From the IMG/VR virus record IMGVR_UViG_2690316121_000006: 64,000 bases of DNA, one strand, 5' to 3'. A program made the translations under genes and the position numbers. Source of the DNA: a virus (taxonomy: Duplodnaviria > Heunggongvirae > Uroviricota > Caudoviricetes). Shown one piece after another: positions 34,743 through 52,562 of the stretch. Position 1 is the first letter of the stretch. Each line of letters opens with the position of its first letter. Under the pieces are notes generated by a model, which did not search any database, was not told where the DNA came from, and saw only the letters and a program-made list of their open reading frames with translations.

Positions 34743-34794
34743 AGTTACGGCCTCACAATCAGGTTTAACAACCTGCTACCCGCTGCTAAACAGG

Positions 34795-34875
34795 TGGCAG
34801 GACGTGACGGGGTTAGCAGACTGGCGATTGTGAAACCAGCAGGCCGAAGCCTCCCCATCACGCCCCACCATAATT
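34795..34875 (-). ncRNA. candidate c4-like antisense RNA (boundaries approximate)
   Basis: ORF-free leader containing a GGCUUCGGCC tetraloop hairpin and a UCUGCUAAC element complementary to GUUUAGCAG repeats that flank it upstream and just before the small ORF. Confidence 0.3.
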
Positions 34876-35056
34876 TGGGCGTAACGCGGTTTTACGGACA
34901 CAAAAATACCGCAATATCGGATATCTGCGGCTGTCCGCACAATCATTCAGGCTGCTAAACCCGGTCGCAGAATTTGCTACGACAGCGGAACTATAAGCCT
35001 GAACGATTAAAAGGTCAATATGATGCGAAAAGATAGCATTCGCGACTTAAAAACAC

Positions 35057-46216: not shown

Positions 46217-46294
46217 CAATCACCCCGTCCGCAGGGCGGGGTGACAAGTTACTTCTCTTACAATGAGGCTTCACAACATTGATTAGGGAAAATC

Positions 46295-46729
46295 ATGTCT
46301 GACGTCTCAACAAACCTCTATAAGAGTCAGTTGTTGGACTATTACTATCAGCGGCGCGCTGAATCGTCCATTAACAAAGGCTCTCGATTTTTAATCAGCA
46401 AGGCCGTTTTCGGTACCAGTTCACTGGTTACTAAGAAAGGAGATGGCACTTATGAGATTGGAGAACTGCCAAAGGCTTTCGATCTGGCAGAACTGACCAG
46501 TCAATTTTGCACCATCAACCTCGTCCCAACCTACTCAGGCGGGATAATTACTGTCCGAATGGACCTTGATCAAAGCCAGTTGCAGGAAGGGAAAAACTAC
46601 CCATTCAACACTCTGGTTGTTCTGGATAACGAGAACAAGCCAATCGCCATTATTTGTGTCCAGGAAGACTCGCTGTATGTGGGCAAAACATATACCGCAG
46701 TTATGGCCATAAACACGACTACAGCATAA
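46295..46729 (+). CDS. tail-fibre-proximal protein
   Basis: 144-aa ORF directly upstream of the fibre gene. Confidence 0.4.
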   Translation: MSDVSTNLYKSQLLDYYYQRRAESSINKGSRFLISKAVFGTSSLVTKKGDGTYEIGELPKAFDLAELTSQFCTINLVPTYSGGIITVRMDLDQSQLQEGKNYPFNTLVVLDNENKPIAIICVQEDSLYVGKTYTAVMAINTTTA

Positions 46730-46740
46730 GGATATGCTTG

Positions 46741-49700
46741 ATGAATGACGTTACAGTTGTCACATCGGTTACTTACCCATCACCCGAGTCGTTGGCTCTG
46801 GTGGCTGATGTGCAATACCACGAACCATATCTGTCAGCCGCGCTAAACCGAAAATTCAGGGGGATTGTTGACCCGGGATTTTATGCCGGTTTCTTACCTA
46901 AGCCTGGCGGTGGGATGAACCTGTTAATCACCTCAGTGGATGGTGATAAAACCGCAGGCGCGGCGTCGGTGGATATTGGTGAATTCTACCAGGTAACTAT
47001 TCAGCAACGTAAGGATATTTCTCTTGCACTTAGTGCAGGCAAGAAATATGCAATTGTGCTGAAGGGAAGATACCTCCTTGGAGAAGATACCTATCAGGTG
47101 AATACCGCGTCACATATTCATGCGGCTGAATTTGTTTCCAGAACCTATACCGATTCATATCAGTTAGGAGATGGGGAGCTGCTTGTTTGTACGGTGAATA
47201 TCCCTGCTGGTGTATCTGCCATTACCCAGGAGATGATTGATACATCCGAGCGTATTAACCGCACGATCGGCATTGATATTTCAGACTCTGTAACCAGTAG
47301 CAGAAGTGATGTTGCGGCAAGTTCGCTGGCAGTTAAAAAAGCCTACGATCTGGCGAAAAGTAAGTATACGGCGCAGGATGCAAGCACAACGCAAAAGGGA
47401 TTAGTTCAGCTCAGTAGCGAAACTAACAGCGACAGCGAAACAATGGCTGCTACCCCTAAAGCAGTTAAGTCTGTAAAAGATCTTGCTGATACCAAAGCGC
47501 CAATAGAAAGCCCGAGTCTGACAGGAACGCCAACCGCGCCGACGGCAGCGCAAGGTACAAATAGCACGCAGATCGCAAATACAGCCTTTGTTAAGGCAGC
47601 TATAACGGCACTTATCAACGGCGCACCTGGCACACTGGATACGCTTAAAGAAATAGCTGCTGCGATCAATAACGACCCGAATTTCAGCACAACTATCAAC
47701 AATGCTCTGGCTCTTAAAGCTCCTTTAGCAAGTCCTGCATTAACGGGAATACCTACTGCGCCTACCGCTGCACAGGGTACGAATAACACGCAGATTGCTA
47801 CGACCGCTTATGTAAGAGCTGCCATATCCGCATTGGTTGGTTCATCACCAGAAGCTCTTGATACCCTGAATGAGCTTGCCGCAGCACTTGGTAATGACCC
47901 TAACTTTGCGACAACAATGACAAATGCGCTGGCAGGCAAACAGCCTCTGGATGCAACTTTAACCGCGCTTGCTGGTCTTGCTACAGGTGCAAATAAATTG
48001 CCGTACTTTACCGGTACAGACACTGTTTCTCAGACTGACTTAACGTCAGTCGGTCGCGATATTCTGGCCAAAACAAGCGTCCTTGCTGTTATCCAATACC
48101 TTGGTTTAAGAGAACTCGGTACCAGCGGTGAAAAGATCCCCCTGTTGAGCACGGCTAACACATGGAGTGCACGCCAGACTTTCAACGGCGGGATCACCGG
48201 GGCGCTGGCAGGGAATGCCGACACCGCGACGAAATTGAAAACAGCACGCTCGATTGGCGGTGTGGCATTTGATGGCTCGGCCAATATCAATCTTCCAGGT
48301 GTAAATACAACAGGTAACCAGAACACCACGGGGAATGCTGCTACCGCGACAAAACTTGCGACGGCAAGAAACATCAACGGTGTTAAATTTGATGGTTCTG
48401 TGGACATTTCGATACCAACAATTACGTCCAGAGGGCGTGTTACTGCGCTCACCGGTACAACACAAGGTGCTGCTACTGGATTGCAAATGTATGAGGCGTA
48501 CAACAACGGCTATCCTTCTGCTTACGGGAATGTGCTTCATCTTAAGGGCGCAACGGCAGTTGGTGAAGGTGAGTTGTTCATAGGTTGGAGCGGTACAAGT
48601 GGCGCTCATGCACCTGTACATGTACGTTCGCGACGAGATACTGATACAGCCAGTTGGTCAGAGTGGGCGCAGGTCTACACATCGAAGGATTCCATCCCTG
48701 GTGTAAATACCACGGGCAACCAGAACACAACCGGAAACGCGGCGTCTGCAACGAAATTACAAACGGCAAGAACTATTGGTGGTGTTTCATTTAATGGCAC
48801 CGCAAACATCGACCTGCCGGGCGTGAATAAAACAGGCAATCAGAGCACTACCGGCAATGCAGCTACAGCCACAAAACTGCAAACAGCACGCACCATTAAT
48901 GGGGTTTCATTTGACGGAACGGCTAATATTTCGCTGTCACCGGCAAATATTGGTTGCCCGGCATCTCCTACTGGTTGGCTTGAAACAGGTGATAATGGAG
49001 CATCAATAACAACAGAGCAATTAGTGACTCTGCTACGAGATAATGGTGCTTTTAATGCAAAGGTATGGATAGCGCGTTGTGCTTGGGCGTATGCAAATAG
49101 TGCATCCATACCAGACAGCGAAACAGGATGCGGCATTATTCCACTGGCTGGCGCAGTTATTGAGGTGTTTAATAACGGCAGTAGCTCAAACAATTATACG
49201 ATTCGTATAACAACGGCAACAACGACAAGCGTTTCTGGCGCACTCACTAATGCGGAGTTTGTCTATGTGTTTAACGGGACGAGCTATTCACCAGGATGGC
49301 GCAGAGCGTATAACACTAAAAACAAACCTACTGCGGCTGATGTCGGAGCTTTACCACTATCTGGAGGAGCGTTAACTGGCGGATTAACTGCTGCTGGCGA
49401 GATTATTTCCAAATCGGCGAATGGTCTTCGTATTGCCTATGGCAACTATGGATTCTTTATCCGAAACGATGGTTCAAGCACATACTTCATGTTGACCGCC
49501 TCGGGTGACAATCTTGGAACATGGAATAGTTTAAGACCGCTTACCATTAACAACGCCAACGGGGCTGTTTCAATCGGTAATGGACTCAATGTAACTGGCG
49601 ATATAAGAACCAATGCATGGGTATATGCAAACAGATTTTCTGTTAATAGCAGCTCAGGTTCTTGGATTAGTATGCGAGATCAAAATGTTATTTTTGGTCT

Positions 49701-50154
49701 TAATAAGGTATCAACCAGTTCCGCCCAGGCATTATTAAGACAAGACCATGCTGACAGAAAGTTCTTTATTGGTGGTCTTGGTAATAGTCAATTCGGCTTT
49801 TACATGATTAACAACTCAAGAACAGCAAATGGTACAGATGGCCAAGCATTTCTTGATAGCAGTGGTAACTTCCAGTGCGGCAGGCAAATACTTCCAGCTA
49901 ACTATAGTAATTTTGACTCGCGCTACGCATTAAAAACGGCTTGTGTGACAAGCGTAAGAATGGGATCTGCTGCCAGTTATAAACCATCAAGCAATGGTGT
50001 TTCCTGGACTCAGAATCTAGGAAGCGGACTGGTTATGACAGGTATTATTGTTCAAGAAACAGGAAGTAATTCAGCTGACAATATCGGTGGTATTTATTAT
50101 CGACCGGTTCAATATTGTATCAATGGAACATGGTACACAGCAGCATCAGTATAA
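46741..50154 (+). CDS. tail fibre protein (constant N-terminal part plus invertible C-terminal part)
   Basis: ATG 46741 after RBS; multiple ~18-aa repeats (PGVNTTGNQNTTGNAATATKLQTAR...); C-terminal 220 aa lie inside the invertible segment and have a reverse-strand alternative. Confidence 0.8.
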   Translation: MNDVTVVTSVTYPSPESLALVADVQYHEPYLSAALNRKFRGIVDPGFYAGFLPKPGGGMNLLITSVDGDKTAGAASVDIGEFYQVTIQQRKDISLALSAGKKYAIVLKGRYLLGEDTYQVNTASHIHAAEFVSRTYTDSYQLGDGELLVCTVNIPAGVSAITQEMIDTSERINRTIGIDISDSVTSSRSDVAASSLAVKKAYDLAKSKYTAQDASTTQKGLVQLSSETNSDSETMAATPKAVKSVKDLADTKAPIESPSLTGTPTAPTAAQGTNSTQIANTAFVKAAITALINGAPGTLDTLKEIAAAINNDPNFSTTINNALALKAPLASPALTGIPTAPTAAQGTNNTQIATTAYVRAAISALVGSSPEALDTLNELAAALGNDPNFATTMTNALAGKQPLDATLTALAGLATGANKLPYFTGTDTVSQTDLTSVGRDILAKTSVLAVIQYLGLRELGTSGEKIPLLSTANTWSARQTFNGGITGALAGNADTATKLKTARSIGGVAFDGSANINLPGVNTTGNQNTTGNAATATKLATARNINGVKFDGSVDISIPTITSRGRVTALTGTTQGAATGLQMYEAYNNGYPSAYGNVLHLKGATAVGEGELFIGWSGTSGAHAPVHVRSRRDTDTASWSEWAQVYTSKDSIPGVNTTGNQNTTGNAASATKLQTARTIGGVSFNGTANIDLPGVNKTGNQSTTGNAATATKLQTARTINGVSFDGTANISLSPANIGCPASPTGWLETGDNGASITTEQLVTLLRDNGAFNAKVWIARCAWAYANSASIPDSETGCGIIPLAGAVIEVFNNGSSSNNYTIRITTATTTSVSGALTNAEFVYVFNGTSYSPGWRRAYNTKNKPTAADVGALPLSGGALTGGLTAAGEIISKSANGLRIAYGNYGFFIRNDGSSTYFMLTASGDNLGTWNSLRPLTINNANGAVSIGNGLNVTGDIRTNAWVYANRFSVNSSSGSWISMRDQNVIFGLNKVSTSSAQALLRQDHADRKFFIGGLGNSQFGFYMINNSRTANGTDGQAFLDSSGNFQCGRQILPANYSNFDSRYALKTACVTSVRMGSAASYKPSSNGVSWTQNLGSGLVMTGIIVQETGSNSADNIGGIYYRPVQYCINGTWYTAASV
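49471..49588. repeat. left inverted repeat of the invertible segment (contains crossover site)
   Basis: 49471-49560 is the reverse complement of 51907-51996 with a single mismatch at the inner end; homology then decays. Confidence 0.75.
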
Positions 50155-50165
50155 TGAGAGAGCAT

Positions 50166-50681
50166 ATGAATAACTTTAAAAATTTCGCACCATATACGCC
50201 AGGCGAAGATAAAAGAGAGCTTGTTGATGCAGGAGTTTTATTCCTGTTGGATGAAAACGGTAACGACTGGTATGAATGTCAGAAGTTATTTTCGGAATGT
50301 ACAAAGGTAATTGCGTATGATAGCAACAACATCGTTGTCAGCATTACAGATGATGTCTCAACCCTTTGGCCCATAGGATTATCTGTAGCAGAAGTGGATG
50401 GTTTACCTGAAGATGTAGATATCAACGGTGGTTGGGTGTTTAGAGACAACTCTGTTGTTAAACGCATATATTCTGATACGGAGTTACAACAGCAAGCTGA
50501 ATCAAAAAAGGCCGCCTTGCTTTCACACGCCGAATCAGTAATTGTAACTCTTGAGCGGGCGGTTAAATTGAATATGGCAACAGATGAGGAACGAGCTAAA
50601 CTGGAAGCATGGGAGCATTATAGCGTGTTGGTTTATCGCGTAGATACAGCTAAACCAGAATGGCCAGAAGAACCGGAGTGA
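50166..50681 (+). CDS. tail fibre assembly protein
   Basis: ATG 50166 (ORF track 50115); MNNFKNFAPYTPGEDKRELVDAGVLFL... paralogous to the reverse-strand copy. Confidence 0.6.
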   Translation: MNNFKNFAPYTPGEDKRELVDAGVLFLLDENGNDWYECQKLFSECTKVIAYDSNNIVVSITDDVSTLWPIGLSVAEVDGLPEDVDINGGWVFRDNSVVKRIYSDTELQQQAESKKAALLSHAESVIVTLERAVKLNMATDEERAKLEAWEHYSVLVYRVDTAKPEWPEEPE

Positions 50682-50682
50682 A

Positions 50683-50714
50683 GTGAAGGCCCGATTTATC
50701 GGGCCTTCACTTTT
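50683..50714. terminator. bidirectional intrinsic terminator
   Basis: GTGAAGGCCCGAT-TT-ATCGGGCCTTCAC with TTTT, between convergent assembly genes. Confidence 0.55.
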
Positions 50715-51270
50715 AACCTGGCTCAGTAGGCCAGACGATCGCATTGAAACTGGCTTTATCTGTTATTGTGTTGAAATCTAATGCATTAACTGCATCAATA
50801 TAGTCCAGCCAGGCGTCAAGAGAAGACTGTTCATCTTCAGATAATATTCTGCCGCGTAGTAATTTTGTCTGGCTAATCACGAGTTGTTGACGTGCGTTGT
50901 TAAGTAGCTCAGTGCGTCTTGATTCCGCCATAGCTTTTAACTCATCTGCGGTTCTTACTCTTTCAACCACATTTTTTCCGTCAAACATCCAGTTCCCGTT
51001 AATATCTACTCCATCAGGCAGGATTTCTATTTCTGCTACAGATGCTCCCACTGGCCAGAGTGTTGAAACATCGTTTGAAATACTCACAACAATATTATCG
51101 CTGTCATAAACTATCTTTATCGTGTTCTCATGAAAAAATTTCTGACATTCATACCAGTCATTACCGTTTTCATCACGTAAAAATACAACTCCTGCTTCAA
51201 CAAGCTCTGACTTATCTTCATCTGGGGTGTAGGATGTGAACTTTTTAAAATTAATCATCGTTTGATCCAT
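50713..51270 (-). CDS. tail fibre assembly protein (alternative orientation)
   Basis: 185 aa; MINFKKFTSYTPDEDKSELVEAGVVFL... Confidence 0.6.
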   Translation of the reverse strand: MDQTMINFKKFTSYTPDEDKSELVEAGVVFLRDENGNDWYECQKFFHENTIKIVYDSDNIVVSISNDVSTLWPVGASVAEIEILPDGVDINGNWMFDGKNVVERVRTADELKAMAESRRTELLNNARQQLVISQTKLLRGRILSEDEQSSLDAWLDYIDAVNALDFNTITDKASFNAIVWPTEPG

Positions 51271-51276
51271 TAATAA

Positions 51277-51978
51277 TCATGCTGTGGCTGCTGTATACCA
51301 AGTTCCATTAATGCAATACTGTAAAGGCCTCAATCTTGCTGGGTCGTCACCATCAACTTCACCAATAATCCCAAGCCCTGTAATGACATAGCCAGCAGTT
51401 TCAAACATCGTGCCTTTCTGCATGGTATGAGTTTTATATGCCCCAAGTCTGACGCTAGTCACACAAGCCGTCTTTAATGCGTAGCGCGAGTCAAAATTAC
51501 TATAATTAGAGGGGGACACCTGACCATTTACAGCAAATGTTATACTGTTATCAGTATTTCTCTGACTATAAAAATGCCATCCTGAATCATCACCTAATTC
51601 AGCTACAACAGGACGAGTAGAGGCACCCCATAGATTAAAGGTTACGTTCTTAGTGGATGTGTTTGAACTTGATAATGAAAAAGTTTTACTATCTCCGACC
51701 AGCAATTTTTTTAAAGAAAAAGCTGCATCATTCTTAAAGCGGAATACTCGCTGACTATTAGCGTAAACATCAAGAATGCCATCACCATTCTGTTTAAAAC
51801 CAGTATCATTATCGCCAAGGACGATAGAGTTACCACCAAGAGCATTTGCAGTACCCAGACCAACAGAACCATAAACAGTTAAACCATTACCGATTGAAAC
51901 AGCACCATTGGCGTTGTTAATGGTAAGCGGTCTTAAACTATTCCATGTTCCAAGATTGTCACCCGAGGCGGTCAACAT
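51277..51978 (-). CDS. alternative tail-fibre C-terminal segment
   Basis: Begins MLTASGDNLGTWNSLRPLTINNANGAVSIGNGL, identical to the fibre gene at the left repeat, ends ...LQYCINGTWYTAATA like the forward copy. Confidence 0.65.
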   Translation of the reverse strand: MLTASGDNLGTWNSLRPLTINNANGAVSIGNGLTVYGSVGLGTANALGGNSIVLGDNDTGFKQNGDGILDVYANSQRVFRFKNDAAFSLKKLLVGDSKTFSLSSSNTSTKNVTFNLWGASTRPVVAELGDDSGWHFYSQRNTDNSITFAVNGQVSPSNYSNFDSRYALKTACVTSVRLGAYKTHTMQKGTMFETAGYVITGLGIIGEVDGDDPARLRPLQYCINGTWYTAATA

Positions 51979-51996
51979 GAAGTATGTGCTTGAACC
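51879..51996. repeat. right inverted repeat of the invertible segment
   Basis: Reverse complement of 49471-49588; outer flank TGTGCTTGAACC-AA-GGTTTAGGATTG (51985-52010) resembles Hin-family crossover sites. Confidence 0.75.
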
Positions 51997-52001
51997 AAGG
52001 T

Positions 52002-52562
52002 TTAGGATTGAAATGATGACGCCGGAAACTTCTTATAAAGCGTGGAAACAGCCACATCATAGATGATTGCAACCTGCTTACGGGGGATGCCCTTCTCCAG
52101 CAATCGCCGCATTTGCTGCAATGTTTCTTCTTGGTATTTAGGCCGACGCCCACCTATACGACCTTCTGCGCGAGCTGCATCAAGTCCAGCGCGTGTACGT
52201 TCAACGATAAGCTCACGTTCCATTTCTGCCAGCGCCCCCATTACGTGAAAGAAAAAGCGCCCCATTGGTGTACTGGTGTCGATGGAGTCAGTGAGACTCC
52301 GGAAGTTAATGCCTCTGTCACGCAGCTCTTCCACCAGCACAACTAAGTGACGCATGCTGCGCCCAAGACGGTCTAACTTCCATACGACCAGGGTATCACC
52401 TCTGGAAAGCATACGGAGTACCTTTTTTAACCCAGGGCGCTCAGCCTTTTTGCCGCTCGCCTTGTCCTCAAAAATTAGCTCACATCCTGCGCTTTCAAGA
52501 GCATTTCGTTGTAAAGCAGTGTTTTGTTCATTTGTTGATACGCGTACATAGCCTATTAGCAT
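52002..52562 (-). CDS. cin: serine DNA invertase, Hin/Gin/Cin family
   Basis: 186 aa; MLIGYVRVSTNEQNTALQ... with catalytic Ser region and C-terminal HTH, near-collinear with Gin. Confidence 0.9.
   Translation of the reverse strand: MLIGYVRVSTNEQNTALQRNALESAGCELIFEDKASGKKAERPGLKKVLRMLSRGDTLVVWKLDRLGRSMRHLVVLVEELRDRGINFRSLTDSIDTSTPMGRFFFHVMGALAEMERELIVERTRAGLDAARAEGRIGGRRPKYQEETLQQMRRLLEKGIPRKQVAIIYDVAVSTLYKKFPASSFQS

Follow-up and report, generated by a model that had tools for sequence, protein, structure and literature searches.

In the 64,000-nucleotide stretch of DNA analysed here (the window; IMG/VR record IMGVR_UViG_2690316121_000006, a virus of the Caudoviricetes), the tail-fibre gene S, its assembly genes and the serine invertase gene cin form a DNA-inversion locus. 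We hold with good, though not complete, confidence that this locus is best explained as the Cin/cix switch of a P1-like phage-plasmid, in a three-site form derived by deletion from a nested four-site version; in this copy, inversion between the sites at the ends of its inverted repeat (s2 and s3) would be impaired, and inversion between a further site (s1) and s3 is predicted.

The 20-nucleotide Cin-type pattern ATCCNANACSWTGGTTYAAG has exactly three matches in the window, against 0.03 expected from shuffled sequence, and none of 100 shuffles of the window reaches three. Two of the matches fall at the repeat ends, where an earlier reading made from the letters alone (the sequence-only reading) had recognised half-sites resembling Hin-family crossover sites; they are indeed 26-bp sites of the Hin/Cin type. 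The third match (48091-48110) lies within the fibre gene. It belongs to s1, which falls beyond the interval marked out in that reading; the four-site ancestry of the locus and the hybrid nature of the cin-side site, s3, were likewise missed there (coordinates and sequences are collected in Table 1). The site s1 is the outer-left site in all four-site relatives; it lies 1.37 kb from s2, on the upstream side, and sits in frame at S codons 450-458, at the boundary of the constant part of the fibre (Sc), as cixR does in P1. The core of s2 falls at S codon 910, within the Gp34_trimer domain, and its sequence, including the AT core, is unchanged in all relatives examined. The hybrid s3 has the outer half and core of P1 cixL and the inner half of s2, and it overlaps the cin stop codon just as cixL does in P1. 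Both s2/s3 and s1/s3 are pairs of inverted 26-bp imperfect palindromes bounding a segment. Their central dinucleotides are equal for s1/s3 (TT and TT) and unequal for s2/s3 (AT versus TT), whereas the s2/s3 cores match (AT and AT) in two relatives of the same layout, L002 and L003. All three sites share one reading frame of S; the present gene encodes 1137 residues, and the predicted fusions, of 1149 residues for s2 x s3 and 693 for s1 x s3, are each open to a single terminal stop.

BLAST searches of PLSDB and of complete E. coli genomes returned hundreds of related plasmids, from which representatives were fetched and their modules mapped. Relative to the window their breakpoints fall at 48091, 49459 and 52008, and the full layout is Sc-s1-M1-s2-[Sv U U' Sv']-s2'-M2-s1'-cin, in which M1 is the middle (shaft) module found in the window, M2 an alternative 1.8-kb middle module, Sv and Sv' the alternative fibre tips, and U and U' their assembly chaperones. 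Four isomers of this arrangement are represented: M1-Sv in L004 (NZ_CP058059), M1-Sv' in L010 (CP057845), M2-Sv in L005 (NZ_CP123268) and M2-Sv' in L001 (CP099227) and L022 (CP134893). Their modules are 95.5-100% identical, mostly above 99%, and annotation gives an intact gene for each of the four fibres, of 1137, 1149, 1294 and 1306 residues. By match pattern, 17 close PLSDB records divide 2, 4, 7 and 4 across the four states, one member per class having been verified and the others assigned from identical patterns. Three of the states occur among 95,217-bp plasmids of identical length from one farm study (H38, H44 and H57), which we take as indirect but strong evidence of inversion in both tiers within short periods. 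In all 12 four-site loci, including Salmonella and E. coli plasmids at 85-95% identity with different cargo modules, the outer pair of sites has TT cores and the inner pair AT cores. With one recombinase, more than two sites (three in the window, four in these relatives) and in-frame assembly of the gene, the locus is a multi-site system.

M2 is absent from the window and from L003 (NZ_CP062890) and L002 (CP066198), and in all three the cin-side site has its outer half from s1' and its inner half from s2', joined at a core, just as a crossover between s2' and s1' would leave it. Lying exactly at the cores of the outer and inner sites, this hybrid junction shows Cin to be active at the core of inner-type sites. 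We conclude that the locus is very likely a Cin multi-site fibre switch that arose by deletion. The hybrid core is AT in L002 and L003 and TT in the window and in L009, L017, L018 and L019. L017 (GCA_049931785.2) differs from the window at 1 of 16,561 positions, the metagenome contig L019 is 100% identical to it, and L009, also a metagenome contig, is more distant; the nearest four-site relatives of the window (L020, L023 and L024) are 99-99.8% identical. L002 and L003, relatives at 98% identity that share the three-site layout, carry the 2.5-kb segment in opposite orientations. Both orientations are seen in relatives (this pair and the four isomers), and one orientation in the resolved contigs of the window's own lineage. 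The junction of Sv' with cin was found in only 1 of 5,426 complete E. coli genomes, and an exact-pattern scan for sites combining an outer half with an inner half found none in IMG/VR or the GTDB representative genomes and a single metagenome contig, L009. A search for the tandem M1-M junction that s2 x s1' recombination would produce gave full-coverage matches that were all two separated pieces, with no junction. The contig break of L018 within the repeat fits a k-mer break at a repeat and is uninformative as to heterogeneity.

The recombinase itself is closely conserved. Cin is identical to P1 Cin at 185 of 186 residues, begins MLIGYVRVST and matches the Gin structures 3uj3 and 4m6f with 294 bits; it has the N-terminal catalytic domain, with a serine near position 10, and the C-terminal helix-turn-helix (HTH) domain of a small serine recombinase. 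The sole difference from P1 Cin is W148L in the HTH domain (codon 148, 52119-52121), which is found in no other of the 11 relatives compared: P1, P7 and nine further relatives all have tryptophan. The aligned residue is tryptophan in Gin 3uj3 and glutamine in 4m6f, and the exact L148 protein is present on seven public contigs. A recombinational enhancer in cis, with putative Fis sites, is a feature of invertase systems that is present here as well, and the 150 bp upstream of cin differ from P1 at two positions. The window is, on its sequence, a P1-like phage-plasmid: R-Sc and the region from cin onward are 96-97% identical to P1, P7 and RCS47, and the R, Sc, cin, lydC/A/B and darA flanks are 96-99% identical to P1/P7. 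Homology to P1 ends at about 48245 on the left and restarts exactly at 51989, everything in between having been replaced. Elsewhere in the window are further P1-type landmarks, namely three tRNA genes (Met, Thr and Asn) and the C4 antisense RNA with its a1/b1 targets (immunity region ImmI), at 11269-13125 and 34790-34996.

We suggest that in the full version a single Cin serves two pairs of sites, an outer pair identical to cixR and cixL of P1, with TT cores, and an inner pair with AT cores, set within a conserved fibre domain of the Gp34_trimer type. The outer flip would swap the shaft modules M1 and M2 and the inner flip the cassettes Sv-U and Sv'-U', so that two tiers would yield four fibres, each in frame and each expressed from the one late promoter that stays in place ahead of R and S. 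The differing core dinucleotides would keep the TT and AT pairs from cross-reacting. Judging from the junction sequence, a rare cross-reaction between s2' and s1', which are direct repeats, would have removed M2 and left the hybrid s3 beside cin. A crossover between an AT and a TT site would give a heteroduplex core segregating to AT and TT daughters; both AT and TT hybrids are then to be expected, and both are found. As the TT core of s3 no longer matches the AT core of s2, the 2.5-kb flip would here be strongly impaired. With Hin, changing one base in the core of one hix site is enough to stop ligation in the inverted orientation (PMC4817059), and by analogy we think it probable that the s2 x s3 reaction of the window is impaired. 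The sequence-only reading had proposed an invertible tail-fibre segment acting as a host-range switch. That holds for the kind of system, which is that of P1 Cin/cix and occurs in both orientations in L002 and L003, whereas the flip it placed between the repeat ends is doubtful in the present copy.

By contrast with s2/s3, the shared TT cores of s1 and s3 would let an active Cin invert 48103-51996 (3.9 kb). The result would be a fusion of Sc straight to Sv', with no shaft module in between, and U' would come to lie downstream of the new fibre gene. That s1 x s3 is the active reaction is plausible but unproven: s1 is the only site whose core matches that of the cin-side site, 3.9 kb separates the two and about 0.5 kb separates s3 from the enhancer, an arrangement close to that of P1, and their half-sites are of types that function in relatives. 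Taken to its most specific form, the proposal would be that the two site pairs of a two-tier fibre assembly are orthogonal solely by their central dinucleotide, that the cross-tier deletion in the window made a TT hybrid which redirects Cin from the 2.5-kb tip cassette to the 3.9-kb s1-s3 flip and a shaft-less Sc-Sv' fibre, and that AT and TT hybrids are footprints of heteroduplex-core resolution; we offer this complete version tentatively, as possible rather than likely.

Several observations weigh against our interpretation. The opposite orientations of L002 and L003 could in principle reflect two independent deletions and not a flip. L017, L019 and one further similar place (as grouped by the search tool) share the orientation of the window, which would also fit a frozen locus. 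When a 647-bp synthetic Sc-Sv' junction was searched against 482 E. coli and 404 plasmid records, no place covered at least 80% of it; as almost no record carries the TT hybrid site, this is a weak test. L009, which does have the TT hybrid, carries Sv and not Sv' next to cin, the result either of a flip despite the core mismatch or of an independent deletion. What a core mismatch would do is carried over from Hin to Cin by analogy, and Cin reportedly recombines mismatched quasi-sites at low frequency (work of Iida and Hiestand-Nauer, 1986-87). Finally, the unique W148L substitution sits in the recombinase, and the activity of this element is a prediction from sequence.

The most probable alternative, although we consider it unlikely, is that this copy has no useful rate of inversion, whether through the core mismatch, W148L or both, and that only the Sc-M1-Sv fibre is made. 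The uniqueness of W148L, at a position that is tryptophan in Gin 3uj3 too, the common orientation of the lineage contigs, and the failure of any s1 x s3 product to appear in the records searched would all be accounted for, and two relatives, L006 and L007, have visibly been frozen through loss of cin. However, apart from this one residue Cin is intact and its catalytic domain is conserved, as are the enhancer and the 150 bp on the upstream side of cin; s1 and s3 are core-matched and consist of half-sites that are functional in relatives; Sv' and U', though silent, are still open reading frames; and the three resolved contigs that share the orientation are possibly one clone.

A simple two-site switch, in which Cin flips 49471-51996 by s2 x s3 at a normal rate and Sv-U and Sv'-U' alternate on a constant Sc-M1 shaft, seems to us distinctly improbable. 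It would explain why the 113-bp repeat has Cin-type sites at its ends, with cin and the enhancer intact, and it would be in keeping with both segment orientations in the three-site relatives and with Sv beside cin in the TT hybrid L009. Against it, the cores of the window differ, where L002 and L003 have AT at both sites, and in Hin such a mismatch keeps the inverted product from being ligated (PMC4817059). Moreover, all resolved contigs of the window's own lineage are in one orientation. Host RecA-dependent homologous recombination over the 113-bp repeat as the main route of inversion, in place of Cin, we regard as very improbable: 89 bp of perfect identity suffices for rare RecA events, and L028 and L009 show inversion at an internal repeat, too (I3, 62-67 bp), in which there is no cix-like motif, but events at repeats of about 100 bp are rare, the hybrid junction falls precisely at the site cores, showing that Cin does act on inner-type sites, and the I3 cases may be assembly artefacts.

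Returning to the three-site Cin switch that we favour, the repeat and the genes that it encloses were largely read correctly at the outset. The sequence-only reading gave a 90-bp inverted repeat with a single mismatch, decaying out to about 118 bp. A repeat search returned arms (I1) at 49459-49592 and 51875-52008, of 134 nucleotides, 93% complementary and 2282 nucleotides apart; base-by-base alignment places the start of the repeat proper at 49471 and 51996 and its end at offset 113, with the first 89 bp perfect and two mismatches, at offsets 89 and 92. Two opposed fibre C-termini with assembly genes had been placed between the arms and a serine invertase gene immediately outside, and these are Sv and U on the plus strand, U' and Sv' on the minus strand, and cin.

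Table 1. Features of the fibre switch and its surroundings (positions in the window)
Feature	Position	Strand	Remarks
Late promoter LPs	46245-46263	+	Upstream of R and S; 18 of 19 positions as in the annotated P1 LPs
R, tail-fibre structure/assembly gene	46295-46729	+	Open reading frame of 144 residues, homologous to P1 R
Sc, constant N-terminal part of S (codons 1-454)	46741-48102	+	Ends at the s1 core
s1	48089-48114	+	TTATCCAATACC TT GGTTTAAGAGAA; 26/26 identical to P1 cixR; core TT
M1, middle (shaft) module of S	48103-49470	+	Defined by module layouts across relatives
s2 (inner type)	49457-49482	+	TTATCCGAAACG AT GGTTCAAGCACA; core AT at 49469-49470
Repeat, left arm	49471-49583	+	113 bp; codes the N-terminus common to Sv and Sv'
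Sv, fibre tip in expressed position	49471-50154	+	227 residues; full S 1137 residues
Internal inverted repeat I3	49898-49964 / 51443-51509		Conserved SNYSNFDSRYALKTACVTSVR motif at the base of both tips
U, tail-fibre assembly chaperone for Sv	50166-50681	+	Pfam Caudo_TAP, E = 1e-28
15-bp perfect palindrome (inverted repeat I11)	50681-50712		Between convergent U and U'
U', alternative assembly chaperone	50713-51270 (or 51258)	-	Pfam Caudo_TAP, E = 2e-21
Sv', silent alternative fibre tip	51277-51996	-	239 residues; in frame with both s2 and s1
Repeat, right arm	51884-51996	-	From repeat search and base-by-base alignment
s3 (hybrid)	51985-52010	-	CAATCCTAAACC TT GGTTCAAGCACA; core TT at 51998-51997
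cin, serine DNA invertase	52002-52562	-	186 residues; Pfam Resolvase (E = 3e-51) and HTH_7
Recombinational enhancer, inside the 5' part of cin	52473-52544	-	71/72 identical to the annotated P1 enhancer

The late promoter has both its -22 box and its -10 box intact and drives whichever fibre modules stand downstream of it in the plus orientation. The R product of the identical contig L017 contains the Pfam domain Phage_P1_tail_fiber_R. Sc, which starts MNDVTVV, is 96-97% identical to the Sc of P1/P7 and matches Pfam Phage_fiber_2. M1 holds the fibre repeats (D1/D2) and most of the Gp34_trimer domain (S residues 835-936), whose last 26 residues are coded by the shared repeat in both Sv and Sv'. 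Between 48211 and 48929 M1 contains four copies of a 77-nucleotide direct repeat, 65-73% identical to the reference copy and arranged as two pairs 402 nucleotides apart, which encode fibre repeats of the form GNAATATKLxTARxIxGVxFDGxANI. The start codon of U was chosen to follow the annotation in relatives. The palindrome I11 is probably a shared hairpin terminator of U and U', to judge from its position, although a simple terminator scan gave this role no support.

The stretch between the I3 arms, whose longest perfect run is about 32 bp, is inverted in L028 (Logan SRR33822090_162, 8 samples) and in L009 (5990-6231), giving chimeric tips in which the N-terminal part of Sv is joined to the C-terminal part of Sv' and to U'. 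Such an inversion could come from RecA-mediated tip swapping or from an assembly artefact. We rejected I3 as a third tier of Cin sites, as it lacks any cix-like motif. The sequence around s2 (49400-49530, encoding GFFIRNDGSSTYFML) is about 85% identical to tail-fibre genes of E. coli chromosomal prophages, with 467 chromosomal places, and the position of the inner site in so widely shared a fibre joint could make module exchange with other phages easier. A BLAST count of the inner-type site across E. coli was for the same reason uninformative and was set aside, the motif being part of a conserved fibre domain in hundreds of chromosomal prophages. Two records, CP099081.1 (13299-13888) and CP099080.1 (6168-6754), denoted H136 and H137, match the end of Sc and the start of the inner repeat in the synthetic Sc-Sv' junction at 88.8% identity, with about 177 bp extra between the matched parts; they may represent a fibre with a very short middle module.

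Among the relatives, the cin-side outer site of L004 (8525-8550) reads CAATCCAATACC in place of CAATCCTAAACC, three bases having turned to those of the cixR-type outer half. The change removes the cin stop codon, and the Cin of L004 (8530-9102, 573 nucleotides) is consequently annotated as four residues longer; it looks like local conversion at a crossover site. The switch has been lost from L006 (NZ_AP024520), where a fimbrial operon with IS1 stands in place of cin and part of the segment, and from L007 (NZ_CP116091), where IS26 does so, and the fibre of each is frozen in one state. In E. coli M37H, NZ_CP092241.1 (2588 bp) and NZ_CP092242.1 (1773 bp) are labelled as plasmids p9 and p10 and correspond to the inner invertible segment and a fibre middle module. 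We rejected the possibility that they are excised circles, as they are linear assembly fragments with repeats as ends. In many short-read assemblies, too, the 2.4-2.6-kb inner segment ends up as a contig by itself (L026-L028).

As first noted, the switch is the textbook host-range switch of P1 and adds little to it. What the relatives add is that, in many of the P1-like phage-plasmids that carry antibiotic resistance in E. coli, E. fergusonii and Salmonella, the receptor-binding fibre appears to be built from two independently flipping tiers, a shaft module and a tip with its chaperone, so that one invertase would provide for four host specificities. Insulation between the tiers apparently comes from the 2-bp crossover core, the same device as is used for orthogonal serine-recombinase sites in synthetic biology, and the window would be a natural experiment on how a change of core affects the pairing of sites. 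The arrangement bears on the prediction of host range and transduction reach for P1-like plasmids, and equally on assembly and annotation, since such loci break into small fake 'plasmids' and their fibre genes are annotated as partial.

Systems of this kind have been familiar since the early 1980s from the P1 C segment, the Mu G segment and Hin, and the locus belongs to a known kind; the nested variant is probably undescribed. In the open-access papers on P1-like plasmids that were searched, the region is treated as a variable C-segment or 'inversion region', and none of them sets out a two-tier four-site layout or pairing coded by the core. Closest in sequence is the C-segment of P1 and P7. 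The flanks are those of the same genome, s1 is cixR, s3 keeps the outer half, TT core and cin-stop overlap of cixL, and the logic of joining a constant Sc in frame to one or other 3' cassette, each of which brings its chaperone, is the same. P1 and P7, however, have two sites, with 0.6-kb repeats that start at the sites (623 bp in L008). The window does not hold a single cixL-cixR segment with 0.6-kb terminal repeats; its repeat is of 113 bp and starts 1.37 kb downstream of cixR, at a new site of the inner type, no repeat partner remains for the cixR-type site, and beside cin there is a hybrid site. The sequences of Sv, Sv', U and U' are, moreover, unrelated or only weakly related to their P1 counterparts, of which the alternative S' fibre of P1 has a defined host range (bioRxiv 10.1101/2022.07.24.501295). 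We considered P7 as a multi-site precedent and rejected it, as it is annotated as a classical two-site system.

The Mu G segment with Gin, Salmonella Hin and e14 Pin share with the window the recombinase family, sites of 12+2+12 bp and dependence on an enhancer, and the need for identical core dinucleotides in recombining sites, on which our interpretation draws, was shown for Hin (PMC4817059). Unlike the locus described here, all three are two-site systems, and Hin switches a promoter and not a coding sequence. Shufflons of the R64 type (Rci) are alike by analogy only: multiple inversions build alternative C-termini of the adhesin PilV, through a tyrosine recombinase acting at different sites with no enhancer. 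Another close counterpart is the Min multiple-inversion system of the P1-related plasmid p15B, reportedly described by Sandmeier, Iida and Arber in 1990-1992 as having six mix sites. There too a P1-family plasmid employs one serine invertase at more than two sites, with nested or overlapping segments and a modular fibre gene kept in one reading frame. The present system differs in that its invertase is of the Cin type and that it has, as against the six sites said to be present in p15B, four sites in two tiers (three in the window), the tiers of the four-site relatives being told apart by their core dinucleotide, TT versus AT.

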